Source of the DNA: Candidatus Omnitrophota bacterium
GTDB taxonomy: Bacteria; Omnitrophota; Gorgyraeia; Zapsychrales; Zapsychraceae
Length of the DNA stretch: 56,000 nt
Direction of reading: 5' to 3'
Assembly: GCA_003528115.1 (NCBI GenBank)
Contig: DOGZ01000010.1
Location: forward strand, 1-56,000
How positions within the stretch are numbered: position 1 is the first letter of the stretch; every line of letters begins with the position of its first letter. The notes beneath the pieces are model-generated. The model had not been told where the DNA came from. It ran no database searches and saw only the letters and a list, made by a program, of their open reading frames with translations. The position numbers were made by a program, and so were the translations under genes. Positions 9,359 through 29,481 of this stretch are shown here, piece by piece.

Positions 9359-9385
9359 TCAGTTGACAATAAATATTTTGCTTTT

Positions 9386-10065: not shown

Positions 10066-11448
10066 ATGAAAATTAAAATTACCGCCTCTCAGATCCAAAA
10101 GCAAGTTCTGGCACCCTCCATGCAGCAGTCCATTGAGATCCTTCTGCTTCCTTTGATTGAGTTAAACACAGCCATTGAACTGGAACTGCAAGAAAATCCC
10201 CTGCTTGAAATCGTTGAGGACAGATCCATGACTTCCCAAAACCCCATCGAAGACCTTGTTAATCAAAATCTTAAACGCCTGAAAGATTCCGCTATAGATA
10301 ACAGTCAACCCGCTTATTTTTCCCAGGAGGAAGAAGACTCTGAAGAAAAGGAAATTACGCGCAGCGCGCCCCTTGAAGAATATCTTTTGCAACAACTGCG
10401 TATTGAAATCACAGACCTTCTGGACCTAAAGATTGGAGAATTCATCATCGGGAATCTGGATGAGGATGGTTTTTTCAGGATGAGTTGCGAGGAAACGGCC
10501 TTAATGCTCGGGCTGAAAAGCGCGGAAATTGTTGAACGGATCCTTCATACCATTCAAAACTTTGAGCCATTAGGCGTGGCGGCCAGAGATCTCAAAGAAT
10601 GTCTCACTGTTCAGGCCCATTTCAAATTTAACGACACCACCCGGGATCTCATTTGCAAAGTCATCAACGACCATCTTGAAGAATTGGGCCGCAAGAAATA
10701 CACCGAGATCGCGCGAAAATTAAAATTACCGTTAACTACCGTCAAGAAAATCACGCAAGAGATTGCCAGTCTGGAGCCAAGACCGGCCCGAAAATACAGG
10801 CCAACCGACACGAATATCTATGTCCGGGCCGACGTCACGATAACAAAGAATTCAGAGGGGGAGTACGAGGTCCGCATCAATAATGATTCTATTCCCCATT
10901 TACGCATCAATGCCTTTTATCAAAACATGCTGAAACAGCCCAATCGAACTCCGGAAGAAATAGAATTTATTCGGGAAAAAGTTAAGAACGGCATTCTTTT
11001 TATCAAGAGCATTGAACAACGGCATCAAACTATCCGAGACATCACCCACTATCTTGTGGCATATCAAAAAGATTTCCTGGAGAATGGCCCCCTCCAACTC
11101 AAACCCATGATCCTGAAAGACGTGGCGGATTCGATCGGAAGAAATGAGTCCACGGTCTGCCGGGCGATCAATAATAAATATGTGGAAACGCCTCAAGGAT
11201 TGTTTCCCATGAAATTCTTTTTTTCCCAAGCCTTGTCAGAGAACACGCAAGACGGTAAGTCCATCTCTAGCCGCAGCATTAAAGAGGAAATCAAGACGCT
11301 GATTGAAGAAGAAAATAAAGTCAATCCCTTATCCGACCAGGACATCCAAAACTATTTTAAAGAAAAAGGAATGCCCGTCGCCCGCCGGACCATCAGCAAG
11401 TACCGCCAAGCCATGCGGATCCTGCCTTCGCACTTGAGAAAAACATAA
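10066..11448 (+). CDS. rpoN: RNA polymerase sigma-54 factor
   Basis: N-terminal Gln/Leu-rich region I, core-binding region, C-terminal RpoN box (ARRTISKYRQAM); second in-frame ATG (10066) fits the canonical N-terminus better than 10048. Confidence 0.9.
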   Translation: MKIKITASQIQKQVLAPSMQQSIEILLLPLIELNTAIELELQENPLLEIVEDRSMTSQNPIEDLVNQNLKRLKDSAIDNSQPAYFSQEEEDSEEKEITRSAPLEEYLLQQLRIEITDLLDLKIGEFIIGNLDEDGFFRMSCEETALMLGLKSAEIVERILHTIQNFEPLGVAARDLKECLTVQAHFKFNDTTRDLICKVINDHLEELGRKKYTEIARKLKLPLTTVKKITQEIASLEPRPARKYRPTDTNIYVRADVTITKNSEGEYEVRINNDSIPHLRINAFYQNMLKQPNRTPEEIEFIREKVKNGILFIKSIEQRHQTIRDITHYLVAYQKDFLENGPLQLKPMILKDVADSIGRNESTVCRAINNKYVETPQGLFPMKFFFSQALSENTQDGKSISSRSIKEEIKTLIEEENKVNPLSDQDIQNYFKEKGMPVARRTISKYRQAMRILPSHLRKT

Positions 11449-11531
11449 CTGATTTTAGAAAAAGCCGACTATTTGCACCCTATAACGGTTCGATTGTCAG
11501 GATCGTTTGTAAAAGAATCGTAATTATAAAT

Positions 11532-11556
11532 GCCGAGACAACCAGTTGGACTCGGG
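11532..11556. terminator. Candidate bidirectional hairpin between convergent rpoN and cupin genes
   Basis: GCCGAGACAACCAGTTGGACTCGGGC inverted repeat; weak flanking U-tracts. Confidence 0.3.
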
Positions 11557-11651
11557 CAGTGTTTGTGGAACCGATACGGCGGCGTTTACAATAATGAAGA
11601 GAGAAACAATAGCAACTATCTATGAATTTCTTGTCATGTCAATCTTCCTAC

Positions 11652-12008
11652 TCACTCGGCCCTTTTATAATCATCCTCCAACCGAATAATGTCGTCTTCC
11701 GAAAGATGGTCTCCGCACGCGACTTCTATGAACACAAGATTCTCATGGCCGGTGTTGGCAATTCGATGGATGGCGCCTAGCGGAACATCGATGACCGCCC
11801 CGGGCCCAACACCAACATCCTTTCCATCCAGCGTCACTAAACCTTTGCCTTTAATAATATTCCACTTCTCCGACCGGTGCAGGTGCTTTTGAAGACTAAG
11901 ACGCTTGCCAGGATTAACCTCCACCCTCTTGACCCAAAACCCCGACTCATGAAGGAATTTAATATAATGTCCCCACGGACGTTCTGAAGCATTGATATTG
12001 ATGTCCAT
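11652..12008 (-). CDS. Cupin-domain protein (mannose-6-phosphate isomerase type II C-terminal cupin-like)
   Basis: 118-aa ORF; GxHRIxNxGxExLVFIEV cupin motifs. Confidence 0.7.
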   Translation of the reverse strand: MDININASERPWGHYIKFLHESGFWVKRVEVNPGKRLSLQKHLHRSEKWNIIKGKGLVTLDGKDVGVGPGAVIDVPLGAIHRIANTGHENLVFIEVACGDHLSEDDIIRLEDDYKRAE

Positions 12009-12131
12009 AGTAAAGTTTCCTTATTTTTCGAAATTCCAGCGTAAGTATACCATATAAGTTTTTTCCCTGAGAAGGGCTTAAGAAAATTTCTGGCACATGG
12101 CGCGCACGGCTATAAACCATGGGCAATCTGC

Positions 12132-13235
12132 TCATCCTTGAGGTACCATTGCCCTGTAAATCCGATCATAGTTACGAGCTTCGACGTCTAAACTAAATTT
12201 CTCTTGAAACCGTTTTCTCCCGGAGGTTCCCATCGAAGCGATCAACGCCGGATTAGCGTGGAGTCTTTTGAGCGCGGATTCGATCCTTTCTGGAAATCCG
12301 CAGGGGACAAGATATCCCGTCTGTTCGTCAACCACGACTTCCCGATGCTCCGCGATGTTCGTCGTCACAACAGGTTTTCCTGCCGCCATCGCCTTTAAAA
12401 TCCATACGGAATCCACCGGCCTGAACGCGAGACGCGCGAAAACGTCAAAGACATCCAACAAACGATCCACCTCTTTATGTTCCTGAAACATTTTTACGGA
12501 ATCGGCAAGATGAAGATCCTGAACTAATGCGCGCAGTTCCTGGAACAAAGGCCCTTGGCCGACTATAACCAATTCGGCATTAACTTCCTTTCTGACCAAC
12601 CGATGAAAGGCCTTGAACAAGGTCGCCTGATCGTTTTCTTTAGTCAGGGGATCGATATTACCGATAACAAAACTGTCTTTCTTAAGGCCGAACCCGGCAC
12701 GGAGCATCATGTTCTCTTCTCTATTTAAGGGCATCCCGCTCTTCCCTATTTCAATACCATCATAAATAACTTCTATCTCCTTAAAACGTATACCGGTTCT
12801 CCGAAGAAGATTTCTTTGAATCCCTTCCGAGGCGCAAATCATTCTCTCATTAAGCATCAGCCCCGAAGCCGGTAGACGTTTGTGAGGAATTGAGTGAAGA
12901 GTATGAATCGACTTACAACCGACCCACTTTGCCGCCACGGATCCAAAGACCCAAGACTCAAAACTATGCGTATGAATAACAGCCGCCTTCTCCCGCCGGA
13001 TTAATTGAACCAGATGGATAAACGCTTTTAAATCAAAACCGCATCTTCGATTAACCGTAAAACATTTTCCCCGGGCTTTCTTGAAAAGCTCAGACTCACG
13101 CGTCTTTTCCGATATCAGAAGAACCGCTGATTCTATCCCCAGAGAGGTTAACTTATCCGAAAGGCCGAGAACAAATTCTTCTATCTCCGCTGTCGATGGG
13201 TGAAGGATATGAATAACTTTAAGAGGGTTGTTCAT
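12132..13235 (-). CDS. Glycosyltransferase family 4
   Basis: 367-aa ORF with GT4 C-terminal EX7E-type region (VVTTNIAEHREVVVDEQTGYLV). Confidence 0.8.
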   Translation of the reverse strand: MNNPLKVIHILHPSTAEIEEFVLGLSDKLTSLGIESAVLLISEKTRESELFKKARGKCFTVNRRCGFDLKAFIHLVQLIRREKAAVIHTHSFESWVFGSVAAKWVGCKSIHTLHSIPHKRLPASGLMLNERMICASEGIQRNLLRRTGIRFKEIEVIYDGIEIGKSGMPLNREENMMLRAGFGLKKDSFVIGNIDPLTKENDQATLFKAFHRLVRKEVNAELVIVGQGPLFQELRALVQDLHLADSVKMFQEHKEVDRLLDVFDVFARLAFRPVDSVWILKAMAAGKPVVTTNIAEHREVVVDEQTGYLVPCGFPERIESALKRLHANPALIASMGTSGRKRFQEKFSLDVEARNYDRIYRAMVPQG

Positions 13236-16185: not shown

Positions 16186-18282
16186 CTATCCCTCAATCAG
16201 GCTGAACGATTCATAACCGGCCTCTTGTAAACATCTTCTTGTCACCGGCCCCTTACTCAGGATTTCCCAAATTGGGGGGATTATATCATAGTCCCTGAGA
16301 AAATTCTTTACTGTTGATGGACTTGTAAACAGAATCTTGTCAATACGTCCTTCCGGCATGTTTCTTTTTTCCGGCTTGATATTTTGATACACGGCCAATT
16401 CGTCGACACTGGCCCCCCATTTTGTTAACTCATTTTTTAAATACGGATTCGGCAAAGAGGAGCGCGGGAACAATATCCTTTTTCCTTTCACGTCATATTC
16501 TTGAAGGATTTTCTGAAAAAGCCCCTCGCCGGTCTCGATTTCGGCGAGAATAAGAGGTTCAAAATCGTAAACGGCCAGGGCTTGGGCTGTATCTTTCCCG
16601 ATAACAATAAAATCCGTTGAGCGCAAACTGAAAACGGGCCAATGTTCATGAGTCAGGATTTCAAAAAAATATTTGACCGCAAAACGGCTGGTAAAAATAA
16701 TGGCTTGGTATTCATGCAAGCGCGCGGTCAAGCGATCAACCACACCTTTCTCCAAGTACGCCGGCTTAATCTCAATCATCGGAAAATGAACGATCTCCCC
16801 GAAAGACGTATATTTCTCCGGATTAGTTCCAGTATAAAGAATCCGTTCTTTCTTCAAAGCTTCCTTCTTAAGAAATTGGATCGTTGGACCGGCAACAATT
16901 AAAGCCGGCGGCTTAAGTCCTTTCTCTTCCACTTTCTTTGCAATGTCCCCCAATCGCCCTGAAACGATTTCTTCATCGGCACGCGTCCCTTTGGAAACTA
17001 CCATTATCAGGCTGTCCTGGGACCACCCCGCCTCTCTGAGAGAGTCAACGATACTCGCCAAACGCGTCAACCCCATCAAGAAAACAACGGTATCCGCCTT
17101 CGGGATTTTCATGATTTCCGTGGACATCTTCCCCTCCTGCTCAGCGCTGACATGAGAGCCTTCTTCATCATCAGCGGCCAGGTGACCGCTTAAGAAAGCC
17201 ACGGAAGACGATAGCCCGCGGGCCGTCAGAGGTATGTTTAAAGACGACGGGATGGCTGTGGCCGAACTCAATCCCGGGATCACCTGCACATCGACATGAT
17301 AACTGCGCAGGTAAGTTATTTCATCCGCCCCACGACCAAAGACGAGCGGATCCCCCCCTTTAAGACGGACAACAATCTTTCCGGCCATGGCCTTTTGCCG
17401 TAAGAGCTTGTTCAGCTCTGGTTGCGGCATGACCTGAGAACCTTTTCTTTTACCCACATAAATTTTTTCAGCTTTCCGAGCGTAATCCAATAAATTTTGA
17501 TGCGCCAAGTAATCGTAAAAGACACAATCCGCCTCTTTAAGGATTTTGACTCCTTTAACGGTTATCAATTCAGGATCGCCGGGCCCGGCGCCGACAAGAT
17601 AAACTTTTCCAAAAGATTTTCGGACATCAATCAACGCAAAAAGCTGATGCCATCTAAAATCCTTACGCCTACCGACAACAGCCAATTGCCCCTGCAAGGG
17701 TGCCGCTTCCCAAGGCATGATTTCTCGAATATAACGCGTAAGTCCCAACCGCCTCAAGGCCACGGTAGCCACAATAATTCCATCGACTTTCCCCTGTTCC
17801 ACTAAATCAAGCCGTTCTTGAATGGTCCCCCGGATATCACAGACGTGAACGCGCGGATTAAATTTTTTGATTTCATTTTGACGGATAAGACTGCTTGTCC
17901 CCACCTTGGCCCCAGAGGGCAATTCACTCAATGGCATCTTACCGACAAAGACGTCGGTCTCATCCAGACTTTTCGTTAAGGCCCAGATACACAAATCTTC
18001 CCTTAATATCTGCGGGAGATCTTTAGCGCTGTGGACAGCTATGTCGATTTCTCCTCTGATCAGGGCCGCGTCCAGGGCGTCCGTAAAAAAATCATCCGCC
18101 ACATTTTGTGTCAAAGGTGTTACTTTGTCCCTGTCCCCTCCGGTTTGATAGGTATAACGCTCCTCGGAAATCCGAACCCCTTTCTCGGCTAGTAAGGAAA
18201 GGATCTCATCAATCTGGACCAAAGCCAGAGAACTCCCTCGGGAGCCGATCCTGATCTTTTGTTGAACATTTATCTCTGCCAT
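16186..18282 (-). CDS. Fusion protein: N-terminal HemC-like (domains 1-2 only), uroporphyrinogen-III C-methyltransferase (CobA/SUMT), uroporphyrinogen-III synthase (HemD)
   Basis: aa 1-215 HemC-like (KIRIGSRGSSLALVQ); aa 225-470 SUMT motifs VYLVGAGPGDPELIT, GGDPLVFGRGADE, VIPGLSSA; aa 475-698 HemD-like. Confidence 0.85.
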   Translation of the reverse strand: MAEINVQQKIRIGSRGSSLALVQIDEILSLLAEKGVRISEERYTYQTGGDRDKVTPLTQNVADDFFTDALDAALIRGEIDIAVHSAKDLPQILREDLCIWALTKSLDETDVFVGKMPLSELPSGAKVGTSSLIRQNEIKKFNPRVHVCDIRGTIQERLDLVEQGKVDGIIVATVALRRLGLTRYIREIMPWEAAPLQGQLAVVGRRKDFRWHQLFALIDVRKSFGKVYLVGAGPGDPELITVKGVKILKEADCVFYDYLAHQNLLDYARKAEKIYVGKRKGSQVMPQPELNKLLRQKAMAGKIVVRLKGGDPLVFGRGADEITYLRSYHVDVQVIPGLSSATAIPSSLNIPLTARGLSSSVAFLSGHLAADDEEGSHVSAEQEGKMSTEIMKIPKADTVVFLMGLTRLASIVDSLREAGWSQDSLIMVVSKGTRADEEIVSGRLGDIAKKVEEKGLKPPALIVAGPTIQFLKKEALKKERILYTGTNPEKYTSFGEIVHFPMIEIKPAYLEKGVVDRLTARLHEYQAIIFTSRFAVKYFFEILTHEHWPVFSLRSTDFIVIGKDTAQALAVYDFEPLILAEIETGEGLFQKILQEYDVKGKRILFPRSSLPNPYLKNELTKWGASVDELAVYQNIKPEKRNMPEGRIDKILFTSPSTVKNFLRDYDIIPPIWEILSKGPVTRRCLQEAGYESFSLIEG

Positions 18283-18429: not shown

Positions 18430-20517
18430 TTATTCTGCAATCAATTTCTTAATCTGCGGCAGGAGTTTGCGGGTGGCGTCGACACCGCCCTTGATCAGTT
18501 CATCAACCCGGTGGAGTTCAAACCAATTGATCCCAATGAGCTCCGGATGGATAACCACATCCGCTATCTGTGAACTCTGTTCAGCCAGCACATATTCTGA
18601 GGCTTGCAGCGTGCGGACAATGATATCCGGGATATGGGGGCTGAAAAACCGTGATACGGCTCGGGATGTCCGGAAAGAAAGATATTTTAAAGGAGCCTTG
18701 GCATAAGTCAGTTGTTCCTGAGCCATCAGACGCTTTTGATCCAACTCAACCCCCAAAGAGACATCCTGCGGCGACTGGAGAACATTCACGGCTATAATCT
18801 TCTTGACCCCCTGGGCGGCGAGAACATTTGTCGGCAAAGGATTAAGAACCCCGCCGTCAATAATCAACTTGTCTTTTTCTAAGATAGGTTTAATAACACC
18901 GGGAATGGCGATGCTCCGGCGGATCGCTTCAACAAGCGAACCGCTTTCAATCACGATTTCTTCTCTATGGATCAAATCATAGGCGATCACTTTAAAAGGC
19001 ACGCGGGCGCTGTAAAATGTTCTGTCCCCCAGGTGTCTCTTCAACCAGCTTTTGATGGCCAGTCCGCCAATTAATCCCGAGGAAGGCGGCATAGCCAGGT
19101 CAAACAACCGTAACATGTTGGCTTTATTTTCAAATTCACGGGCCGCCTTTTCCAAGGCATTGGCATCCATACCGCTTATCCATAAACCGCCGATCAAGGC
19201 CCCCATACTGCTGCCCACAACCATGTCGACGGGAATGTTTTCTTCCTCTAAAACGCGAATCACACCGATATGCGAAATCCCTAAAGCCGCTCCACCCCCC
19301 AGGACAAGCCCCACCAGGACATTTCCGATTTCTCTGGCCATGCGCGTGACAATCCTGGAGTATTCGCTGCGCTCATTACATTTTATGAAAGATATCTGCC
19401 CGGAATTGACATCCCCCTTCAAATCCGAAGAATGAATGTGGGGCAACATGATATGCACACTGTAATCAATAGCCTTGTCGATTTCTTCAAACGACAGATA
19501 GTTCTTGGCCTGAGTGGGCCGGATAATAACCCGGATTTTATCTTCGCGGAATTTCTCCTGAAGATTTTCTTCCAGACGATCAATGTCTCTGCGGATTAAT
19601 TCCAGATCTTTTCTATGGTCGGTCGTAATGAGATGGACGAGATCCGACTGCGTTAAAGTTTCCAGGATCACATCATCCATCTGATTGGGCAAATCAACGA
19701 CCACATAATGATAATTCCCCACCAAAGAACCGACAAACGGGCTGATCTTCCTCTTGAGCGATGTGTCGTCCGGATCAAAAACGACATTCAACAAATCAAT
19801 CTTCAAATCGCTTTTAATAATACTGCTCATGATCCTGTCATGATCTCCCACAATTTCATTAAGCGCGACCGCGGGGGATTTCCATTGAATGGCGGTTTCA
19901 ATATGCAGGGGCCCATCGTGGGCGTGCTGTGCCTGCCTGGAATAGATATTCACAAAAATAACTTTTTTCTTGGTCTCTTTTTCCAAACTCAGCGCCAAAT
20001 TAATAGCATAGGTCGAACTCCCCGTGCCTTTCACAGGACTGTAAATGGAAACAATGGTGCTTCCGTACAAAGATGGGGCATTTTCCGCCTTACGGCGTAA
20101 ACGATGCGAAAGGCTGTGGCTGAACTCCACACCGAGCTGGGGAATCGATTTTAAAATATCGTGGAAATCGTCTTTAGGAATTTTCAGAACAACCGAATCA
20201 TTGATCGCCTCAAAGGTCGAGGAATGGTTCTCCCCGGTAAAAACAGAAATGATCCCAAAATACATCCCCCGATGGATGAATTCGACGTTTTCCTTCCTTC
20301 CGCCGGAAATAAGACTATGCGCCAACACCCGCCCGGAGATCAGACAATAAAAGAAATCCGGGAGATCCCCCTGACGGCGGATCGTCTCTCCTTTTTTATA
20401 CTCAACGATGATGGATTTGCGAGCGATCCTTTGCAGTTCCAACCAGCCCAGATTGGAAAAGATAGGAATTTGTTTAAGGGTATTGCAGCGGTTAAGAAAA
20501 GTAGAAATGCTGGTCAT
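18430..20517 (-). CDS. Multidomain cNMP-binding / degenerate MinD-ParA-like / patatin-like phospholipase protein
   Basis: aa 15-135 cyclic-nucleotide-binding fold; aa 150-375 ParA/MinD-like with non-canonical P-loop (SPVKGTGSST); aa 395-600 patatin (GGGAALG...GSSMG catalytic Ser, DGG catalytic Asp). Confidence 0.8.
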   Translation of the reverse strand: MTSISTFLNRCNTLKQIPIFSNLGWLELQRIARKSIIVEYKKGETIRRQGDLPDFFYCLISGRVLAHSLISGGRKENVEFIHRGMYFGIISVFTGENHSSTFEAINDSVVLKIPKDDFHDILKSIPQLGVEFSHSLSHRLRRKAENAPSLYGSTIVSIYSPVKGTGSSTYAINLALSLEKETKKKVIFVNIYSRQAQHAHDGPLHIETAIQWKSPAVALNEIVGDHDRIMSSIIKSDLKIDLLNVVFDPDDTSLKRKISPFVGSLVGNYHYVVVDLPNQMDDVILETLTQSDLVHLITTDHRKDLELIRRDIDRLEENLQEKFREDKIRVIIRPTQAKNYLSFEEIDKAIDYSVHIMLPHIHSSDLKGDVNSGQISFIKCNERSEYSRIVTRMAREIGNVLVGLVLGGGAALGISHIGVIRVLEEENIPVDMVVGSSMGALIGGLWISGMDANALEKAAREFENKANMLRLFDLAMPPSSGLIGGLAIKSWLKRHLGDRTFYSARVPFKVIAYDLIHREEIVIESGSLVEAIRRSIAIPGVIKPILEKDKLIIDGGVLNPLPTNVLAAQGVKKIIAVNVLQSPQDVSLGVELDQKRLMAQEQLTYAKAPLKYLSFRTSRAVSRFFSPHIPDIIVRTLQASEYVLAEQSSQIADVVIHPELIGINWFELHRVDELIKGGVDATRKLLPQIKKLIAE

Positions 20518-20553: not shown

Positions 20554-22407
20554 CTATTTAATAATATCCCTCTCCATCCACTCAAATTCTGCGGCCAAGA
20601 GCTTCTTGGAAACGGAGATGCTCTGACGATCACAATTCTTTTCACTTTCATTAAAGAAGACTTCAATGCGCTGCTGCGCCGAACAACAGAACAATTCCGC
20701 CAGGTGCAGGGCATTCCCTTTTTCCTTGGAACTCTTCATTAAAGCATCCGCGTACGAACAGGTGGCCGCCATAGCGAAAAGTTCAACACCGATATCCACA
20801 ATGCGGTTTAAAATAGCCTGTTTGGCCTCGAGTTTCTTTTGATAACGCATCATTTGATGAAAAACTTCCCGCCCCAAACGTTTGCTGGTCGATTGAATAT
20901 ACCCCATATAACGGCCAAGATGAGGATCCATACCTTTCACAGAGACGGCCTGAGGCAAAAAAAGCTTGGGATACCACCACCCATAATACCGGATCATCGA
21001 ACCGATGGCCTTGCATTTTCCCAAGACACTCACCCGTGAACTAAAAAGCGGTTTCATCCGGCTTAAATGCGGGTCCAAAGCCTCGCGGGCGATAAACAGA
21101 TGCATGATCTCGGATGTGCCTTCGATAATCAAATTGATGCGGATGTCTCTGAGCACACGCTCTACGGGCCAACTGTCGACGCCCCTGGCGTCTAAAGAAT
21201 CTTTCTTTTCGTAGCCCTTCCCTCCACGGATCTGCAGGGTTTCATCCACAATCTTCCACGTGTGGTACGTGCAGAAATATTTCGCGATCGCGGCCTCGAG
21301 ACGAATATCCCTTCTGTGATCATCCGCCATCGCGGACGTCAGCCATGTCATGGCATCCATCGCGAAGGTGTGGCTCGCGATATAACCCAATTTCAAGGCA
21401 ATGCTTTCATGCTCCCCGATGGCCGCGCCCCACTGCTTTCGTTTTAAGGCGGATTGCCGCGCCACATAAACACACCACTTCCCGACGCCGGTTGAAGCCG
21501 CCGGAAGTGTTAACCTCCCCGTATTCAGTGTCGTTAAGGCCAACTTAAGTCCTTCCCCTTCCGCCAAGATGATATTCTCTTTAGGCACCTTAACATTTTT
21601 AAACCGCATCAATCCGTTGGACATGCCGTTTAATCCCATAAACTTGCAGCGATGAACCACTTCAACCCCGGGTGTATTCGTCTCCACTATAAAAGCCGTG
21701 ATCTGTTTATGTTCCTTCCCATCAATGATCTTGGGAGGCGTGACAGCCATAACCACGATCACGCCCGCGATGGGCCCGTTCGTACACCAAAGTTTTTCTC
21801 CGTTAAGAAGAAAGGACTTCCCGTCTTCCACAGGGGCCGCTGTCGTCGTCATCTTGCGGGGATCCGAACCGGCCTCCGGTTCCGTTAAGGCAAACGCCGA
21901 GACGATCCCTTGAGCAAACATCGGTAAATACTTTTTCTTCTGTTGTTCCGTGCCGAACAGTTTCAGCGGTTGAGGGACTCCAATGCTCTGATGCGCTGAG
22001 AGCATAACGGCCGTGGATCCGCAGTAGCTGGCCACCATATGCATCGCACGATTGTAATTATATTGACTTAATCCAAGCCCGCCGTATTCCTTGGGGACTT
22101 TTATGGCAAAGGCCCCTAAATCCGCCAACCCTTTCATGACCGTCTCGGGAATAATTCCGGTCTTATCCACCTCATTAGGGTCGAGCTTTTCCTTTAAGAA
22201 TTTCTCCAACTTTTCAACAAACGCGTCACCAATTTTTTTATCTTCTTCGGACTGCAACGGGAAAGGATGAACAGCCTTCCAATCAAAGACCCCATGGAAC
22301 AACTGCAAGGCAAAACTCGGAAACTTCCATTCTATCTCACGGGCAGCTTCGGCGAATTCTAAGGATTCTTTTTTGTCTTGACTGATGTTTTTATCAAACA
22401 TGCTCAT
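20554..22407 (-). CDS. Acyl-CoA dehydrogenase, long form with C-terminal extension
   Basis: 617-aa ORF, ACAD N-terminal/middle/C-terminal domains (TEPEAGSDP motif). Confidence 0.85.
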   Translation of the reverse strand: MSMFDKNISQDKKESLEFAEAAREIEWKFPSFALQLFHGVFDWKAVHPFPLQSEEDKKIGDAFVEKLEKFLKEKLDPNEVDKTGIIPETVMKGLADLGAFAIKVPKEYGGLGLSQYNYNRAMHMVASYCGSTAVMLSAHQSIGVPQPLKLFGTEQQKKKYLPMFAQGIVSAFALTEPEAGSDPRKMTTTAAPVEDGKSFLLNGEKLWCTNGPIAGVIVVMAVTPPKIIDGKEHKQITAFIVETNTPGVEVVHRCKFMGLNGMSNGLMRFKNVKVPKENIILAEGEGLKLALTTLNTGRLTLPAASTGVGKWCVYVARQSALKRKQWGAAIGEHESIALKLGYIASHTFAMDAMTWLTSAMADDHRRDIRLEAAIAKYFCTYHTWKIVDETLQIRGGKGYEKKDSLDARGVDSWPVERVLRDIRINLIIEGTSEIMHLFIAREALDPHLSRMKPLFSSRVSVLGKCKAIGSMIRYYGWWYPKLFLPQAVSVKGMDPHLGRYMGYIQSTSKRLGREVFHQMMRYQKKLEAKQAILNRIVDIGVELFAMAATCSYADALMKSSKEKGNALHLAELFCCSAQQRIEVFFNESEKNCDRQSISVSKKLLAAEFEWMERDIIK

Positions 22408-22631: not shown

Positions 22632-23678
22632 CTAAAGGACTAATAAGACAAGGGTCTCCAAATGCCGAGTCTTGGGAAAGAAATCAAATGGCATAATCCT
22701 TTTAACCTTCCAGCCCTGGTTGACAAAACACGTGAGATCCCGCGCCAGAGCTTCAGGATTACAGGAAAGATAAAAAAGATAATTCAAATTTTTGGCAGAA
22801 GCCAGCAGACGCAAAGCGCTGGGACTCAATCCGGCCCGCGGCGGATCAATGAATGCCACTTGATGCCCTCCAGGAGATCCTTGAAGCAGGACCGGCAGTT
22901 TATCCTCGACCCTTCCTTCAACGACCTCAAAGTTTTGGAAATGATGAACGCGCACGTTGTATCTCGCCAATCTTAAAGACGCTTGACACTCCTCGATCAA
23001 AAAAACTTTCTTTACTTTGTCGGCCAATCCAATGCCGAATAATCCTACCCCGCCATAAAGATCATAAAAGGAGATCTCTTGCTCACTCCAAAAATCAAAC
23101 GCCTTCAAACGTTCAAAAAGTCTCGGCAAAATCGAAAGGTTCGCCTGAAAGAACGTGTCCAGCGAGTAATAAATCTTTCTGCCGTGAATATCCACCCAGA
23201 AATAATCCTCTTCTTGTAATTGACACGATCCGCGGCCGATGCCGCCCCATAAAACACGACCATTTTCTCCGTTGCGTACAACGATATTGGCCAGGCGATA
23301 TTTTTCAGGGAGTTTTGCCATAACCTGCGTTTTGAGTTCGGGGATAAAGGCGGATATTCTTTCGTCGGCAATCGGACAGGCGTCCACCGGGATCATGCGG
23401 CGCCCTTCCCGGGGGGAGAACCCCATAAATATTTCTTTTTTCCGGGTGCGCAGGAGTTTTAAATCAAGACGGTTGCGGTAGTGATAAGGTTTCGGTGACG
23501 GGACAATCGGCTCAAAAAGGTCATCCCCAAGCGCCAGAGTCTCTTTCAACAGCGACTTGAGTTTGGCCTCCTTACCCTTAAGTTCTTCCTCGTAGGGAAT
23601 ATTCTGGTAAAAACAACCGCCGCATTCACCAAAGACGGGGCATGGAGCAATAATGGATTCTGTTTGAACAGTAAGCAC
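22632..23678 (-). CDS. Class I SAM-dependent RNA (uracil-5)-methyltransferase, RlmD/RumA family
   Basis: N-terminal Cys cluster CPVFGECGGC, SAM-binding DLYGGVGLFG, FIDPPRAGL motif. Confidence 0.75.
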   Translation of the reverse strand: MLTVQTESIIAPCPVFGECGGCFYQNIPYEEELKGKEAKLKSLLKETLALGDDLFEPIVPSPKPYHYRNRLDLKLLRTRKKEIFMGFSPREGRRMIPVDACPIADERISAFIPELKTQVMAKLPEKYRLANIVVRNGENGRVLWGGIGRGSCQLQEEDYFWVDIHGRKIYYSLDTFFQANLSILPRLFERLKAFDFWSEQEISFYDLYGGVGLFGIGLADKVKKVFLIEECQASLRLARYNVRVHHFQNFEVVEGRVEDKLPVLLQGSPGGHQVAFIDPPRAGLSPSALRLLASAKNLNYLFYLSCNPEALARDLTCFVNQGWKVKRIMPFDFFPKTRHLETLVLLVL

Positions 23679-23758: not shown

Positions 23759-24328
23759 TTACAAAATTTTGAAAGACTTCATCATCATCTCCACTTTGGG
23801 AACAAAGTTTTCATAGGTGGAGGACATGGCGGTAAAAGTTACCTGATACGCCTTTGAATCGTCGAGGGCCCATTGAATCTTATATTGAAACTCCACGTCC
23901 GGCCCCTTGCCCAGAAAAACAAAATGATGCCCGGGCCGGCCGGCTAAGGGCGCCGGTTCGGATTTAAGAATCACTAAATTAGATTTAAAAACGACCTGCA
24001 TCTGGTGAATCGCCGTCTTGGTGTACATATCAAGATTGTTCAAATGCTTAGGGACATCCTGGACAATGACGCTGAAATTTTCCTGAAAAAAATCCAAATC
24101 ATTCTCCTTGGGGGACACAAAAACAACTTCAGCGCCTTGCGTCTTATTTTTATCCGCGATCGTCCAGTCAGAGGGATATTCCATTAAAAATCTGCCCTGA
24201 GGATCTTTATATCTGATATATTCGCGTTTTTGTCCGAACATCCAGAGCGTCACCACCGTGCCGATAACCAGAACCCCAACAATCGAAATGATGACGTAAA
24301 ACAATTCTTCGTGTTTGCGTTTATTCAT
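23759..24328 (-). CDS. Membrane-anchored hypothetical protein (possible PsbP/DcrB-like fold)
   Basis: 189-aa ORF with a single N-terminal TM; no confident family assignment. Confidence 0.45.
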   Translation of the reverse strand: MNKRKHEELFYVIISIVGVLVIGTVVTLWMFGQKREYIRYKDPQGRFLMEYPSDWTIADKNKTQGAEVVFVSPKENDLDFFQENFSVIVQDVPKHLNNLDMYTKTAIHQMQVVFKSNLVILKSEPAPLAGRPGHHFVFLGKGPDVEFQYKIQWALDDSKAYQVTFTAMSSTYENFVPKVEMMMKSFKIL

Positions 24329-24438: not shown

Positions 24439-26577
24439 TTATCCCTTAAAAAATCCTTTCCTTTTTTCCCTCAAATCCAGTATGTACTTGGCGGGTTGAA
24501 AACGGGGAGCGTTGAGCTCAACTCCCAATTTCTCTAACCGGCTCACGAGATGGTCTATCCCAAGCGTGTCCGCGTACCGTAAAAGCCCCCCGCGAAACGG
24601 CGGAAATCCTGTTCCAAAGATCATACCCGTATCGACGGTGTCTGCGCCGTCAATAACCCCTTCTTCCAGGCAACGGGCCGCTTCGTTAATCATAATATAC
24701 AGCAACCGTTCACGGCACACCTCCGGATCAAAACGCCTTCGGGAAGACCCTGTTATGAGTCGGTTGATTTCAGGATTGGGCGTTCTTTCTTTGCCGTGGC
24801 TATAAAACCCTTGGCCTGATTTCTTCCCCAAGTATCCTGCTTTAAAAATGGTCTCAAAGATCTCCACGGGCTTGTAACGTTCGTTGATTCCTTTTTCTAA
24901 AATATGCAGAACCTTGATCCCGACGTCCAACCCGACTTCATCGGATAGAGCAAATGGCCCCATGGGCATACCAAAATCCGTCATTAAACGATCAACCTTT
25001 TCCATCTCGCCGCATTCCTCAAGAATTCGTCCGGCCTCATTCACGTATCCCAGCAAAACGCGATTCACCAGAAACCCACAAGAATCTTTAACCAGAATAG
25101 GAATTTTCCCCAACTGTTTCACGAGCGCGAGCGTTGTGACAATGGTTTCCTTTGACGTCATGGGCGTTGTAATGACCTCGACCAACGGCATACGGTGAAC
25201 CGGATTAAAGAAATGAAAGCCGATCACCTTTTCCGGACGCGAGGTCTCTTTCGCCATTTCCGTCACAGACAAGGCGGAAGTGTTCGTCGCTAAAATAGCG
25301 TGTTCGGAGGCAGCGCCGCTCAAATCCTTGAAAACCTTTTTCTTGATGTCCATGTTCTCGACGACCGCTTCAATGACGTAGTCGGCCGTTTTAAATCCGC
25401 TGTAGTCCAAAGTGCCAGTGATATGCGCCATTTGCGTCATGGCCTGGGCCTTGGTCAACTTTCGTTTCTTGACACCATCTTTGAAAATCTTATTTGCCGC
25501 CTGAAAACCCTTAGCCACCGCGTCATAGTTAATATCTTTGAGCCGCACCCAGATGTCTCTTGAAGCGAGAAGCTGGGCAATGCCTCCGCCCATCACCCCC
25601 GCGCCCAATACAGCGCATTTACGGACCGGCTGAGACTCAATCCCATCGGCCCCCTCCAACTTTAACTTTTTATATTTTTCGGAGAGATAAAAAACAGCCA
25701 CCAAATTCTTGGAAATCCCTGTGACCGCCAACTCCCCAAATGTCCGGGCCTCGACCTCCAATCCTTTAACGCGGTTAAGAAAGAAATTTTTCTCAATCAC
25801 TTCAACCGCTTTTACCGGCGCCGGATAAAATCCCTTTGTCGCTTTCAAAACATTTTTTTTGGTCTGATAAAAAATGAACGATTGTCCGGTTAAAGATCCC
25901 TCGAGTAAACCCGCCCAGCCTTTTTTCTTATTTCTCGCATATTTAGTCTTTCCCAATCTTTTATCTTTGCCACTTTTGATATCCGAAATAAATTTCTTCA
26001 GATGATCTTCCAGACCCGTTTGTGGACAAAGCCGGTCGAAAAGACCTATCTTTAACGCCTTGGAACCGTCTACAGGCTTGCCGGCAAGGATCATCTTTAA
26101 TCCTTCGGCTAAACCAACAATCCGCGGCAAGCGGTACGTGCCGCCAAATCCAGGAACAAAACCGAGGTTAACTTCAGGGAGACCGATCCGCACTTTATCA
26201 TTGAATGTTGCCAGACGGTACTGGCAGGCCAGACTCAACTCACATCCGCCTCCTAAAGCCACCCCGTCAATCACGGCAATGGTAGGGATCGTCAGATCTT
26301 CCAGTTTATTCAAAACCTTTTGACCCGCCCTGGCCTTTTCCATGCCGTCTTGACTTTCTGTAATCTGCTCGATCTCTTTGATGTCCGCGCCGGCAAAAAA
26401 GACATCTTTCTTCTTGCTCCATAACACAATCACTTCAAGATTCTGTTTGGTCTTGATTCCATCCAGCACAGTATCCAGGCGTTTAATCACGTCCGATGTG
26501 AGAAGATTGACCTTTGAACCTTCCTGATCAAATTCAATGGTGCCAATATTATTATTCTCTCTAAAAGTTACTGACAT
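24439..26577 (-). CDS. fadJ: Fatty-acid oxidation complex alpha subunit (enoyl-CoA hydratase / 3-hydroxyacyl-CoA dehydrogenase)
   Basis: 712 aa; crotonase N-domain (FFAGADIKEI) followed by 3HCDH NAD-binding (AVLGAGVMGGGIA). Confidence 0.9.
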   Translation of the reverse strand: MSVTFRENNNIGTIEFDQEGSKVNLLTSDVIKRLDTVLDGIKTKQNLEVIVLWSKKKDVFFAGADIKEIEQITESQDGMEKARAGQKVLNKLEDLTIPTIAVIDGVALGGGCELSLACQYRLATFNDKVRIGLPEVNLGFVPGFGGTYRLPRIVGLAEGLKMILAGKPVDGSKALKIGLFDRLCPQTGLEDHLKKFISDIKSGKDKRLGKTKYARNKKKGWAGLLEGSLTGQSFIFYQTKKNVLKATKGFYPAPVKAVEVIEKNFFLNRVKGLEVEARTFGELAVTGISKNLVAVFYLSEKYKKLKLEGADGIESQPVRKCAVLGAGVMGGGIAQLLASRDIWVRLKDINYDAVAKGFQAANKIFKDGVKKRKLTKAQAMTQMAHITGTLDYSGFKTADYVIEAVVENMDIKKKVFKDLSGAASEHAILATNTSALSVTEMAKETSRPEKVIGFHFFNPVHRMPLVEVITTPMTSKETIVTTLALVKQLGKIPILVKDSCGFLVNRVLLGYVNEAGRILEECGEMEKVDRLMTDFGMPMGPFALSDEVGLDVGIKVLHILEKGINERYKPVEIFETIFKAGYLGKKSGQGFYSHGKERTPNPEINRLITGSSRRRFDPEVCRERLLYIMINEAARCLEEGVIDGADTVDTGMIFGTGFPPFRGGLLRYADTLGIDHLVSRLEKLGVELNAPRFQPAKYILDLREKRKGFFKG

Positions 26578-26640: not shown

Positions 26641-27921
26641 TTATCTCTGCAATATAACCGCCGCTCCCTGGCCTCCACCAACGCACAAAGAGATCAAACC
26701 CGTATTCAGATTGTCGCGCTTCATATGTTTGAGCATCGTTAAGATCAATCGTGTCCCTGACGCGCCCACCGGATGCCCCAGAGCTATGGCCCCGCCGTTC
26801 ACATTAAGAATAGACCGGTCAATCGTTCCTGTGTACCCATCGTACCCAAATGTTTTAGCAAATGAGGGAGACTCCAGGGCAGCGAGACAGCTTAAAACCT
26901 GCACGGCAAAAGCCTCATTGATTTCCACTGCCTGGATATCTTTTAACTTCATCTCAGCTTTTTTCAAGACCTTGGGGATCGCGTGCGCCGGCCCAATGCC
27001 CATGCGATGGGGTTCAACCCCGGCAAAAGCATAAGCGTGAACATATCCCAACACGGGAAGATTCAATGCCTTGACCCGGCTTTCACTCATCACAAGTAAA
27101 GCTGCCGCTCCGTCTGTGATCTGACTGGAATTGCCCGCCGTGATCGTGCCCGATCGTTTATCAAAAACCGGCTTTAATTTGGCCAGGGCCTCCATGGTCT
27201 GGTTTTCCCGAGGGCCGTTATCCAGCTCAACCGCGGTCTTGTATTTCGGCGCCGGAATGACAGGGACAATTTCCTCTTTAAGCGCTTCGCGGGCCTTCAC
27301 CGCCTTTTGGTGACTAGCCAAGGCAAACGCGTCCTGCTGTTCCCGGGTAATACCAAATTCTTTCGCGAGAACCTCGGCGGTCTGCCCCATATTCAGTCCA
27401 CAGACAGGATCCGTTAACCCGAGTTGAAGACCAATCTGCGGCGGGAGATATTTGAAACGAAACGTCCCCCACATCTGAAGTTTAGCCATGACCGTCTTGG
27501 CCTTGGCCAACCGGCCCAGGAAATCCTGCATTGATCTGGATAAATAAAATGGGATGCTGGTCATTGACTCGGTACCGCCGGCCAAATAACAATTTCCCTC
27601 GCCGACTTGAATTTTCATAACGGCCTGAATGACCGCCTCTATCCCTGAGGCACAATTGCGCTGGACCGTATAGGCTGGAATAGTCGTCGGAATACCGCTC
27701 ATCAAGGCGATCACGCGCGCAATGTTGGTTGAATCCGCGGGCTGACCGACGTTGCCAAAAATCACTTCCGCGATCTCCCGGGGGTCGATGGCGGTTCGTT
27801 CCAAAAGTTCCCGGGTCACAATGGCTCCGAGTTCCCGCGCCCCTAAATCATTAAAATCCGTCCCCATCCGGCAGAACGGGGTCCTGATGCCATCAATAAT
27901 CGCTATTCGTTCCATAATCAT
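26641..27921 (-). CDS. fadA: Acetyl-CoA C-acyltransferase (3-ketoacyl-CoA thiolase)
   Basis: 426 aa; thiolase C-terminal NVNGGAIALGHPVGASG. Confidence 0.9.
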   Translation of the reverse strand: MIMERIAIIDGIRTPFCRMGTDFNDLGARELGAIVTRELLERTAIDPREIAEVIFGNVGQPADSTNIARVIALMSGIPTTIPAYTVQRNCASGIEAVIQAVMKIQVGEGNCYLAGGTESMTSIPFYLSRSMQDFLGRLAKAKTVMAKLQMWGTFRFKYLPPQIGLQLGLTDPVCGLNMGQTAEVLAKEFGITREQQDAFALASHQKAVKAREALKEEIVPVIPAPKYKTAVELDNGPRENQTMEALAKLKPVFDKRSGTITAGNSSQITDGAAALLVMSESRVKALNLPVLGYVHAYAFAGVEPHRMGIGPAHAIPKVLKKAEMKLKDIQAVEINEAFAVQVLSCLAALESPSFAKTFGYDGYTGTIDRSILNVNGGAIALGHPVGASGTRLILTMLKHMKRDNLNTGLISLCVGGGQGAAVILQR

Positions 27922-27996: not shown

Positions 27997-29481
27997 CTAT
28001 TCCTTCGGCCTGCAATCGACAATTCTTTTCTCCTTATTAGCGGTCTCCACTTCGAGACGTTTCACCATCTCAGACATTGGCAAAAAATGCACCGCGTTAG
28101 GGGTCACCTCTGTCGTTAATAACATCTGCTTCTTGATATCGTCTTCTATTTTCCCGAGATTGCTCCCGTCCTTGGCCGCGACATAGACATTCAGTTCATC
28201 CACCTCAAAGGGGTCATTATTTTTCTTTCCGATCTCAATCTGCCATTCATCCACGGACGGCATCTCGGAGAGGACAGTATAAAAATGATTCAAATTAACT
28301 AAAGAGCCTTTGATTTTTGATAAATTTAAATCCTTCACGTTCGACAACCGCGTGATATCACTGCTGAGGCGCGGGACCGTCCGTTGGCAATACGGACAGG
28401 GTTCATACGTCAAACCGCCTTTGACAAAATCGCCTGTGCGATAACGGATCACAGCGCTGGCCCTGGCATCAAGGGCCGTATACACCAGTTCTCCATCCTC
28501 TCCTTCGCCCTTCACCTCTCCCGTCTGAGGATCAACCACTTCAAATATCTCTTTATCCGGATAAAGATGGTAGCCGCTGGAGACATCCAATCCCGTCGGG
28601 CACTCAGCCCAGGCCGCCCTGGCCTCGGTAAAACCATAGGTCCCGAAAATAGAAACATCCTTAGCCCCCATGGATGCCAACATCTCAGCGAGCCTGAGTT
28701 TAAAGGCCTGGGGAATTTTAGACGCGCCCAAAACCACTTTCTTAAGAAAATCCATCCGGCATCCCTTTTCTTTGGCCACGCGCATCACATGATAGACATA
28801 ACTGGGGACGCCTAAGAGCACAGAAGGCTTCATCTTCAGCAGCGTCGCGATATTCCCTTCCGTTCCCATGACCTTTCCCCCGCCGGTACTCAAGATCAAC
28901 GTGCACGAAGCAAAACCGCCAAAGACGACCTGCCAAAAGGCCAGATGAGGGGCGTAAGGAAACATATTCACGACCCGTTCAGAATTTTTTATGTCAAACA
29001 GCTTCAGCATCCGGTCGCCGGAGATATGTAAATTGCGGATATCATAATTGCTATAAACAAACGGCACCGGGGTATGCGTGGTGCCCGTCGTAAAGGTCAT
29101 AAAGACAGGCCGGAATTCTTGATTGAAACGATCCTCCACATAAGAAGCGCCGCGCAACGCCCTGGAGAAAACCAAGGCCAACAGTTTAGTCGCGGGCCAA
29201 CAAGAACGAATTCTGTCCTTATCCGGCTGAAAAATGAAATCTCTGAAAGAGTCCGGTTTCTGGTCCGAGGAAAGAAAGTCCGTCTTGGAAGTGAAGGGGA
29301 TATATTTTAAATCTTCCACTGTTCTGATGGTTTTAGGATCAATTTTATGCTGATCAAATACGCGGCGGTAATGAGGACTGAAAGGGTAAAGGCAGGTATT
29401 AATAAAAGAATGTAGTTTGTTATCTTGCAGACGGCGTATATCTTCCCGTGAAGCGCCGGCCAACTTCCTCCATGGATCCAT
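27997..29481 (-). CDS. Phenylacetate-CoA ligase family adenylate-forming enzyme (PaaK/CapK-like)
   Basis: 494 aa; adenylate-forming core (YRTGDFVKG), PaaK-like length and N-terminus. Confidence 0.7.
   Translation of the reverse strand: MDPWRKLAGASREDIRRLQDNKLHSFINTCLYPFSPHYRRVFDQHKIDPKTIRTVEDLKYIPFTSKTDFLSSDQKPDSFRDFIFQPDKDRIRSCWPATKLLALVFSRALRGASYVEDRFNQEFRPVFMTFTTGTTHTPVPFVYSNYDIRNLHISGDRMLKLFDIKNSERVVNMFPYAPHLAFWQVVFGGFASCTLILSTGGGKVMGTEGNIATLLKMKPSVLLGVPSYVYHVMRVAKEKGCRMDFLKKVVLGASKIPQAFKLRLAEMLASMGAKDVSIFGTYGFTEARAAWAECPTGLDVSSGYHLYPDKEIFEVVDPQTGEVKGEGEDGELVYTALDARASAVIRYRTGDFVKGGLTYEPCPYCQRTVPRLSSDITRLSNVKDLNLSKIKGSLVNLNHFYTVLSEMPSVDEWQIEIGKKNNDPFEVDELNVYVAAKDGSNLGKIEDDIKKQMLLTTEVTPNAVHFLPMSEMVKRLEVETANKEKRIVDCRPKE

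Follow-up and report, generated by a model that had tools for sequence, protein, structure and literature searches.

What is a cell of the Omnitrophota doing with a 695-aa protein that places a cyclic-nucleotide-binding (CNB) fold and a ParA/MinD-like fold in front of a patatin lipase, and what would decide when such a lipase acts? Patatin lipases are dangerous to the membranes of their own cells and, to our knowledge, are always held in check, although we know of few mechanisms by which this is done. Known controls include ubiquitin for ExoU, Rab5 for VipD, and cyclic oligonucleotides for CapV and CapE. The gene considered here lies in a 56-kb stretch of Omnitrophota DNA (the window), and its features and those of its neighbors are collected in Table 1.

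The open reading frame begins with ATG and occupies 18430-20517 on the minus strand, where all of the motifs quoted in the first-pass annotation are found (PIFSNL, RRQGD, FGIIS, SPVKGTGSSTYAINLA, VVVDLP, GGGAALG, GSSMG and DGG). The plus-strand reading of the same interval was rejected, as it contains stop codons throughout. A 100%-identical protein in a Candidatus Omnitrophica metagenome-assembled genome is annotated only as 'hypothetical protein'; protein searches recovered more than 270 full-length homologues of the three-domain protein, and the reading frame is therefore well beyond chance. Conservation is given below as counts among 276 relatives. The three-part anatomy first proposed (cNMP-binding, ParA/MinD-like and patatin) was borne out by a Pfam scan together with fold evidence. 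The outer domains match cNMP_binding (PF00027, aa 38-123, E 5e-20) and Patatin (PF01734, aa 404-566, 101 bits against a cut-off of 27.7, E 1e-28), while the middle domain reaches only 21 bits with AAA_31 (aa 155-297), under the cut-off of 27.

Table 1. Features of the 695-aa gene and its 5' neighbors, in window coordinates
Feature	Position	Strand	Remarks
Whole ORF, 695 aa	18430..20517	-	CNB fold, ParA/MinD-like fold and patatin/RssA-like lipase
CNB-fold sensor domain, aa ~12-145	20083..20484	-	
Non-canonical phosphate-binding cassette, aa 84-101, GMYFGIISVFTGENHSST	20215..20268	-	Ile89 for Glu, His98 for Arg
ParA/MinD-fold domain, aa ~152-398	19324..20064	-	Closest structure 3ea0; kin to ~400-aa CpaE/TadZ-like proteins
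Eroded P-loop, aa 159-170, YSPVKGTGSSTY	20008..20043	-	Ser167 at Walker-A Lys, Val162 at signature Lys
Walker-B-like strand YVVVDLPN, aa 271-278	19684..19707	-	Asp275 kept in 239/276 relatives
TQSD motif, aa 289-292	19642..19653	-	Gln290 and Asp292 at least 95% conserved
Patatin/RssA-like lipase domain, aa 400-693	18439..19320	-	
GxSxG nucleophile elbow GSSMG (Ser437)	19201..19215	-	Invariant in 276/276 relatives
DGG motif, catalytic Asp554	18850..18858	-	Invariant in 276/276 relatives
VLCAD-type acyl-CoA dehydrogenase (ACAD), 617 aa	20554..22407	-	ACAD9/ACADV C-terminal domain; 36 bp 5' of the 695-aa gene
FadJ-like	24439-26577	-	Further 5'
FadI-like thiolase	26641-27921	-	Further 5'
PaaK/FlxY-like acyl-CoA ligase	27997-29481	-	Further 5'

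The taxonomic range was judged by the source names of matches in two protein searches, together with a scan of GTDB genomes, and almost all of the named matches were from Omnitrophota. Other names occur as well: 'uncultured Planctomycetales' on many of the 80 genome loci, and 'Lysobacterales' or 'Eisenbacteria' on single records. These labels are taken as labelling or binning artefacts, and the architecture appears to be confined to Omnitrophota. Literature searches found no description of the three-domain architecture or of Omnitrophota patatin proteins.

The enzymatic end of the protein is the most readily interpreted. A Ser-Asp dyad (Ser437/Asp554) is present along with the glycine-rich oxyanion motif GGGAALG, and every one of the 276 relatives keeps the dyad; judged by these residues, the lipase domain is intact and under strong constraint. 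The RssA/YchK equivalog model NF007623 is covered end to end, but its score of 112 bits is under the cut-off of 272, and RssA is a single-domain protein while the protein studied here has three domains. PlpD also differs, as its patatin domain is the passenger of a secreted type Vd autotransporter.

The proposed sensor is a genuine CNB beta-barrel whose last element is a long C-helix (aa 126-144); the linker after it (aa 146-151) is of low confidence. In classical CNB domains, the glutamate of the phosphate-binding cassette (FGE) contacts the ribose 2'-OH and its arginine (PR[ST]A) neutralises the cyclic phosphate. Alignment to the CNB domains of PKG and PKA places Ile89 at the glutamate and His98 at the arginine. 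The arginine position is His in 271 of the 276 relatives and Arg in none, while 118 of 120 close homologues have Ile, Val or Met at the glutamate position, and FGE is retained only in a sister clade (115/276). Ser91 and His98 of the cassette both reach at least 95% conservation in the family as a whole, so the pocket is under constraint and has not decayed. As read from the alignment, it is a conserved yet non-canonical pocket, with an almost invariant His for Arg and, in the clade of the window, Ile for Glu. It is possible that His98 could still contact a phosphate.

The first-pass annotation had compared the protein to NTE-type lysophospholipases gated by a second messenger, and this reading, in which cAMP or cGMP acts at a classical CNB domain, is the most direct alternative. 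The pairing itself stands: the NTE family (PNPLA6/NTE, PNPLA7 and Drosophila SWS) likewise carries CNB folds N-terminal to a patatin (lyso)phospholipase (PMC9025805). Membership in that family does not, as NTE is anchored in the membrane at its N-terminus, contains three CNB domains and lacks a ParA/MinD domain (PMC9025805), whereas the protein studied here has a single CNB domain with an Arg-to-His pocket and a ParA-like insert of 250 aa, and inspection of its translation revealed no evident N-terminal hydrophobic segment. The genuine fold, the FGE glutamate of the sister clade and the ability of histidine to donate a hydrogen bond to phosphate all speak for gating by cAMP or cGMP. However, canonical gating is unsupported because the arginine is replaced by His in nearly all relatives and the glutamate by Ile in this protein; in addition, no nucleotide cyclase is encoded within the 56-kb window. 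Gating of this kind is thus considered quite unlikely. A precedent for an arginine-less CNB pocket with a changed ligand is the trypanosome PKA regulatory subunit, which binds nucleosides (PMC10959531). That cAMP-independent subunit has a polar residue and Glu where the Omnitrophota protein has His and Ile, and its effector domain is unrelated to the lipase. From the pocket residues, we infer that the ligand is probably new, the fold sensing a small molecule other than classically bound cAMP or cGMP. Candidate ligands include lipid-derived compounds such as acyl-CoA or a lysolipid, a nucleoside, and c-di-GMP.

A nucleotide sensor joined to a membrane-destroying patatin lipase also recalls anti-phage abortive infection of the Pycsar or CBASS type, and the CBASS effectors CapV and CapE and the Pycsar CNB effectors are indeed patatin or CNB-fused proteins activated by nucleotides and oligomerisation. 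The likeness is structural. Those effectors are encoded in defence islands beside a partner cyclase and have a canonical ligand pocket, whereas the gene studied here has no cyclase nearby, lacks the cassette arginine, and sits within metabolic operons. It has been inherited vertically within one phylum, as indicated by uniform GC content, phylum-wide synteny, and PADLOC matches that are only weak. These matches were between the CNB domain and Pycsar effectors, and the defence reading, which is extremely improbable, was rejected.

The middle domain is harder to place. Searched alone against PDB sequences, it gave only a marginal match (3ea0, E 0.003), and a family profile was needed to match it to that structure; the predicted model shows the strand-loop-helix geometry of a P-loop. 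The ParA fold proposed for this segment is thereby borne out, and the domain is a true ParA/MinD homologue. Among solved structures, the ParA-family ATPase 3ea0 is nearest to it, and its relatives by sequence, of ~400 aa, look CpaE/TadZ-like. The protein is not, however, a CpaE/TadZ protein (PDB 3ea0, 3fkq). TadZ serves to localise pilus machinery, its gene lies in tad pilus loci and its N-domain is receiver-like; the Omnitrophota protein instead has a CNB fold at the N-terminus and a lipase fused at the C-terminus, and the neighbors of its gene are ACAD, fad and haem genes in a lipid-catabolism context, with no pilus locus.

The nucleotide-binding motifs depart from the canonical ones as the first-pass annotation had noted, with the VVVDLP strand and its Asp275 retained. 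The deviant Walker A motif KGGxGK[ST], with its two lysines, is absent; the corresponding residues read SPVKGTGSST, in which Gly164, Gly166 and Ser168/Thr169 are kept. Among the 276 relatives, the Walker-A lysine position is S in 125, R in 67 and K in 39, the signature-lysine position is variable, and G-K-[ST] is kept in only 35. No P-loop residue reaches 95% conservation, and some members have fully scrambled loops (e.g., YYKEDHTEF and SHPHNIFQF). The switch-I (Walker A') aspartate is also absent, with VNIYS in place of VDxD; this position (190) is Asn in the protein itself, and D in 124 and N in 93 of the relatives. Only five positions in the domain are at least 95% conserved, Gln290 and Asp292 of the TQSD motif among them, and it is the fastest-evolving of the three domains (mean pairwise identity of 0.31, compared to 0.44 for the CNB and 0.47 for the patatin domain). 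A BY-kinase-like AAA_31 protein of the same genome retains both GK[ST] and DxD. These patterns suggest motifs that are eroded in the clade of the window and unconserved across the family, and the proposal of a repurposed ATPase, now serving as a scaffold, is plausible.

It is also important to consider that the domain may still be a nucleotide-dependent dimerisation switch of the TadZ/CpaE kind, so that ATP too controls the assembly of the lipase or its positioning at the membrane or pole. Structure 3ea0 itself has GDGGS for GK[ST] and is also without the Walker-A lysine. Moreover, E. rectale TadZ is reported (Xu 2012, as cited in PMC10482377) to have ATPase activity though both P-loop lysines are lost, so that loss of the lysines is not proof of lost nucleotide binding. 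The retained glycines, Ser168/Thr169 and Asp275 fit such a switch, as does G-[KR]-[ST] in the sister clade (86/276 relatives). Weighed against the unconserved and in places scrambled P-loop, the Asn at the switch-I aspartate and the fast evolution of the domain, an ATP switch is somewhat unlikely, and a mainly non-catalytic module is preferred.

The gene neighborhood bears on what the lipase is for. The gene was described as lying directly upstream of ACAD, but this orientation is wrong: it lies 3' of ACAD on the same strand, across a 36-bp gap, and the two are probably in the same operon. Of the beta-oxidation cluster that was claimed, ACAD does adjoin the gene, but the FadJ-like, thiolase and CoA ligase genes, a block that is syntenic in related loci, are further 5', beyond two unrelated genes, one PsbP-like and the other encoding an RlmD-like methyltransferase. 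The 3' neighbors are haem-biosynthesis genes. A scan for promoters and terminators near the gene gave site numbers no higher than those in shuffled sequence and is therefore silent on operon boundaries. Of the 60 related loci, termed clade A, 39 have ACAD immediately 5' on the same strand, with an estimated gap of at most 30 bp in 30 of the 39 and frequent overlap of the ACAD stop and the following start codon. In another 20 of the 60, no ACAD was found within up to 10 kb 5' (only 4-7 kb being available in a few); most of these also have neither thiolase nor fadJ, and the lipase gene is retained. Either the coupling can be dispensed with, therefore, or those genomes carry the partner genes at other sites. 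Adjacency in clade A is by itself weak evidence because synteny there extends over the whole block, down to transketolase, an rRNA methyltransferase and the haem genes.

A second context comes from clade B, the deeply diverged sister clade, in which the operon runs glycerol kinase, GDPD, the lipase gene, thiolase, 3HCDH, ECH, ETF, a FadD-like gene and a hydrolase. One or more of thiolase/3HCDH/ECH, ETF, FadD-like CoA ligase and Hydrolase_4 are found directly 3' on the same strand in all seven contexts, with the CoA ligase and hydrolase in every one. Directly 5' is an FGGY kinase (4/7) or GDPD (3/7), and the glycerophosphodiester product of NTE fits the GDPD gene. PilZ and YajQ genes recur beside these operons, which is what brings c-di-GMP in as a candidate ligand of the CNB fold. 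No FGGY, GDPD, ETF, FadD or Hydrolase_4 gene was found within 10 kb in clade A loci, and the two associations are therefore independent. Two clades that are deeply diverged and differ in gene order thus both have the lipase gene in operons for fatty-acid or phospholipid catabolism, and the lipid-catabolism link first proposed from the window is supported by both contexts (ACAD in 39/60; clade B in 7/7).

These contexts also weigh on a further explanation, namely that the protein is an RssA/YchK-like housekeeping lipase for membrane-lipid remodelling or quality control, with fatty-acid neighbors that reflect only inherited gene order. Although the clade A block is syntenic down to its unrelated genes and the lipase gene persists without nearby ACAD or fad genes, the independent and differently ordered phospholipid-to-acetyl-CoA gene set of clade B (7/7 contexts) and the overlap of ACAD stop and lipase start codons in many clade A loci make this explanation improbable. 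The repeated fatty-acid-breakdown setting indicates instead that the protein probably controls when phospholipids enter beta-oxidation. The reading that is favored, if only slightly, is of an Omnitrophota-specific, regulated patatin-type (lyso)phospholipase, probably cytoplasmic, that frees fatty acids from (phospho)lipids so that they can be activated and beta-oxidised.

In the mechanism proposed for this enzyme, the CNB fold would sense a small ligand other than classically bound cAMP or cGMP, and the signal would pass through the C-helix and the short flexible linker to a unit formed by the ParA-like and patatin domains, in which the last ParA-like helix leads without a break into the first patatin strand. 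Within this unit, the ParA-like module would act mainly as a non-catalytic dimerisation or scaffold element, perhaps also positioning the protein at the membrane, that sets lipase activity; such control would have a parallel in other patatin enzymes, whose activation depends on oligomerisation. A more specific version, in which the histidine pocket senses a ligand other than cAMP or cGMP and the eroded module turns binding into dimers or filaments that switch the lipase on, is unlikely as it stands. If true, it would give patatin enzymes an allosteric design that has not been described before.

The protein is not a new kind of system, as it combines three known folds with an ordinary enzymatic output. 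What the family adds is a candidate design for patatin control that spans a phylum, in which a sensor with a rewired pocket and a ParA/MinD pseudo-ATPase are held in one chain with the lipase, encoded at the head or tail of lipid-catabolism operons. With P-loops that range from G-K-[ST] through G-R-[ST] and G-S-S to scrambled within a single orthologous family, it also offers a clean natural case in which a ParA/MinD fold drifts away from ATPase activity toward a scaffold role. For the organisms themselves, these findings mark phospholipid catabolism as a conserved trait of uncultured Omnitrophota, and, if the more specific version of the mechanism holds true, host-dependent Omnitrophota nanobacteria would have in this protein the entry valve of a pathway for scavenging phospholipids.

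The target gene is a single ORF with an ATG start; the plus-strand reading of the same positions contains many stop codons, and all motifs quoted in the first-pass annotation were found in the minus-strand translation. The three-domain anatomy proposed there, a cyclic-nucleotide-binding (CNB) fold, a ParA/MinD fold and a patatin lipase, was confirmed by Pfam scan, a profile search and a confident AlphaFold2 model built with 27 homologues (mean pLDDT 82.5, pTM 0.72). The best structural matches of the CNB domain are CRP (18.9), the PycTIR CNB domain (18.8) and PKG (18.5). A middle-domain profile made from 26 family members matched 3ea0 over its whole length (E 1.5e-17) and, less strongly, Soj, MinD and ParA (E 1e-8 to 1e-10); structure prediction and profile agree on a ParA fold, with 3ea0 closest. 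In the model, the final helix of this domain (aa 385-398) is continuous with the first patatin strand, and the predicted junctions are rigid towards the lipase and flexible towards the sensor.

Features of the target protein (aa) and of genes in the window (nucleotide positions)
Feature	Position	Strand	Remark
cNMP_binding	aa 38-123		Pfam, E 5e-20
CNB barrel and long C-helix	C-helix aa 126-144		AlphaFold2 model
Linker	aa 146-151		AlphaFold2 model, low confidence
Seven-stranded alpha/beta domain	aa 154-398		AlphaFold2 model; strand-loop-helix aa 154-182
AAA_31	aa 155-297		Pfam, 21 bits, under cut-off 27
Patatin domain, first strand	aa 402-406		AlphaFold2 model
Patatin	aa 404-566		Pfam, E 1e-28
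PaaK/FlxY-like CoA ligase	27997-29481	-	first in transcription order
FadI-like thiolase	26641-27921	-	second
FadJ	24439-26577	-	third
PsbP-like protein	23759-24328	-	fourth; 189 aa
RlmD-like methyltransferase	22632-23678	-	fifth
VLCAD-type acyl-CoA dehydrogenase (ACAD)	20554-22407	-	sixth
Target	18430-20517	-	seventh; 695 aa
HemC-CobA-HemD fusion	16186-18282	-	698 aa; 3' of target; then HemB, HemL, DUF3568 protein, GT4 glycosyltransferase
PEP-CTERM/XrtA-style exopolysaccharide gene set	5302-13235
AAA_31 protein	5302-6087		in exopolysaccharide set
GNVR/Wzz protein	7200-8510		in exopolysaccharide set
rpoN	10048-11448		within exopolysaccharide set, on opposite strand
Epimerase to DUF4434 gene set	44459-52185	-

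Conservation was counted over 276 full-length members aligned to the family HMM. Ser437 (GSSMG) and Asp554 (DGG) are kept in 276/276, and conservation reaches 95% or more at about 40 positions of the patatin domain; judged from sequence, the lipase is intact and strongly constrained, and it is very probably active. It is similar to RssA/PlpD, and the NCBIfam RssA model spans aa 400-693 end to end (E 3e-32), yet it falls under the RssA equivalog cut-off. In one homologous protein, P0080, the patatin-domain loop between 'LFDP' and 'PxxGL' is extended by a hydrophobic, Gly/Ala/Phe-rich insertion of ~48 residues (alignment A1 columns ~534-582), and this loop may face the membrane.

The first-pass annotation had proposed gating by cyclic nucleotides. 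In classical CNB domains, an Arg neutralises the cyclic phosphate. Pairwise alignments place Ile89 and His98 of the target at the FGE Glu and PR[ST]A Arg of PKG/PKA CNB domains, respectively, and the loss of both residues, named in the first-pass annotation as an outcome that would refute such gating, tells against it. Across the family, the Arg position of the phosphate-binding cassette is His in 271/276 members and Arg in 0/276, while the Glu position holds Glu in 115/276 (clade B, a deeply diverged sister clade with the same three domains) and Ile, Val or Met in 147/276 (clade A, which includes the target). Because Ser91 and His98 are each at least 95% conserved, the pocket is constrained but rewired, not decayed. 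In trypanosome PKA-R, where the Arg is replaced, the ligands are nucleosides (PMC10959531), and we lean towards a ligand other than cAMP or cGMP in the target.

The P-loop was also said to be non-canonical, and it is: it reads YSPVKGTGSSTY, with Ser167 and Val162 at the Walker-A and signature Lys positions; the switch-I Asp is replaced by Asn190, and Walker-B Asp275 is present. The domain is a true homologue of the ParA/MinD family but lacks its defining Walker-A and switch-I motifs. Among the 276 members, the Walker-A Lys position is Ser in 125, Arg in 67 and Lys in 39, with neither Lys nor Arg in 170; G-K-[ST] occurs in only 35 and G-R-[ST] in 51, and the P-loop is scrambled in some. No P-loop residue is at least 95% conserved, a level reached in this domain only by Gln290, Asp292, Pro359, Tyr386 and Arg395, and mean pairwise identity is 0.31, versus 0.44 for the CNB and 0.47 for the patatin domain. 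In contrast, the canonical AAA_31 protein of the window, our in-genome comparison, retains GK[ST], DxD and DTPP. This pattern of erosion speaks against nucleotide chemistry as the domain's conserved role. The domain could still bind nucleotide, since 3ea0 has GDGGS where GK[ST] is expected and E. rectale TadZ is reported, in a passage of PMC10482377 citing Xu 2012, to be ATPase-active without either lysine; the sequences nevertheless incline us to regard the module as non-catalytic. Pocket and Walker-A states co-vary (pocket Glu with Walker-A Lys or Arg, 78/115; pocket Ile or Val with Ser, 114/141), which points either to joint degeneration of the two sites in clade A or to a functional coupling between them.

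A Candidatus Omnitrophica MAG encodes a protein 100% identical to the target that bears no annotation beyond 'hypothetical protein', and at least 120 full-length homologues share 54-65% identity, nearly all named ones being Omnitrophota. Scanning GTDB at one genome per species gave 331 matching coding stretches, of which the best 80 come from MAG records labelled Omnitrophota or 'uncultured Planctomycetales', plus one 'Lysobacterales'; we read these 80 as one phylum despite the differing deposit labels. With only the middle domain as query, an exhaustive HMMER search recovered the same 650-710-aa architecture (identity down to ~22%), fragments of it, and many ~400-aa proteins that carry the domain at residues ~130-380, bear canonical KGGVGKTT and VDLDLQFGD and have the CpaE/TadZ layout. 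All ten clade B proteins scanned had cNMP_binding and Patatin, with AAA_31 detected in 8/10 and over its cut-off in 6/10; named clade B members are mostly Omnitrophota, with one 'Eisenbacteria' label. A literature search for the CNB, ParA-like and patatin architecture found no describing paper, and the combination appears undescribed and restricted to Omnitrophota. One MAG (CAYNSM01) has two full-length clade A copies on separate contigs (loci L070 and L071), each 51% identical to the query; they are either paralogues or a sign of mixed strains in the bin.

Every gene from 12132 to 42721 lies on the minus strand. The target was first placed directly upstream of ACAD; it is instead 36 bp 3' of it, and while ACAD does adjoin the target, two unrelated genes split it from the fad genes. 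The whole block is syntenic in related loci (best 80 of 331). Among 60 loci whose 5' flank extends for 2.5 kb or more, ACAD lies directly 5' on the same strand in 39 (estimated gap at most 30 bp in 30/39, stop/start overlap in 11), the methyltransferase or PsbP-like gene takes its place in 13, and ACAD was not found anywhere in the available flank in 20. The target gene is retained also in loci without ACAD and fad genes nearby, and clade A synteny alone is weak evidence because unrelated genes are syntenic too. The PsbP-like gene, in a presumably non-photosynthetic bacterium, is always paired with the RlmD-like gene, and the pair sits between fadJ and ACAD, syntenic across the phylum. The triple fusion (HemC dipyrromethane-cofactor domain, CobA/uroporphyrinogen-III methyltransferase, HemD), apparently without the usual C-terminal HemC domain and followed by hemB and hemL, is kept 3' of the target in many Omnitrophota loci. 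The region is uniform in GC content, and PADLOC gave only weak CNB-domain matches, which makes an origin in a defence island unlikely. Elsewhere in the window, the exopolysaccharide set includes a split BY-kinase (the GNVR/Wzz and AAA_31 proteins), an AAA_22 ATPase, a Poly_export/SLBB protein and an stp2-like GT4; a WecB-type UDP-GlcNAc 2-epimerase, a GT2 synthase, a 1167-aa TPR protein with an NfrA_C domain and a DUF4434 protein resemble an NfrC/NfrB/NfrA-type exopolysaccharide secretion module.

The decisive evidence for a lipid-catabolic link is the clade B context. In 7/7 contexts, a ~600-aa FadD-like CoA ligase and a Hydrolase_4 alpha/beta hydrolase follow 3' on the same strand with short gaps, and in all except locus L081, whose 3' genes are only these two, a thiolase, 3HCDH, ECH or FadJ-type fusion also follows on that strand; ETF-beta and ETF-alpha are 3' in some. 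An FGGY (glycerol-kinase-type) gene lies 5' in 4/7 and a GDPD glycerophosphodiesterase gene in 3/7. No FGGY, GDPD, ETF, FadD or Hydrolase_4 gene was found within 10 kb of clade A loci; the clades are therefore tied to fatty-acid degradation through different partners and gene orders. Taken together, the clade B genes would make up a complete phospholipid-degradation route, in which patatin and Hydrolase_4 would release fatty acids and glycerophosphodiester from phospholipid, GDPD and FGGY would convert the latter to glycerol-3-phosphate and glycerol, and the FadD-like ligase would form acyl-CoA for beta-oxidation, with ETF, to acetyl-CoA. This route supports the initial idea of a lipase feeding beta-oxidation, and a lipid-catabolic role for the family is likely. 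Immediately 5' of the operon, 6/7 contexts (L081, L083, L084, L085, L087, L088) have between one and three small PilZ-domain genes, alongside YajQ in L083, L084, L085 and L088, and L086 has a single PilZ gene 3' instead; these neighbours hint at c-di-GMP signalling nearby and could bear on the CNB ligand or be mere synteny.

Of the suggested NTE-type identity, the CNB-patatin pairing stands, but a single CNB domain, an extra domain and the lack of an evident N-terminal hydrophobic segment place the target outside the NTE family (PMC9025805). Unlike TadZ, it has no receiver domain and does not sit in a pilus locus. A ligand other than classically bound cAMP or cGMP may act on the CNB fold, whose C-helix or lid movement would be transmitted to the ParA-like and patatin unit, with the ParA-like module setting lipase activity by way of dimerisation, scaffolding or positioning. 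Oligomerisation sets lipase activity in CapV, CapE and iPLA2-beta, all three of which came up as structural neighbours. We consider this composite of active lipase, lipid-catabolic role, non-cNMP ligand and non-catalytic ParA-like module slightly better than an even bet. The folds, enzymology and pathway are already familiar; drift from ParA to scaffold within one orthologous family, together with a rewired CNB pocket, is what makes the system attractive and testable.
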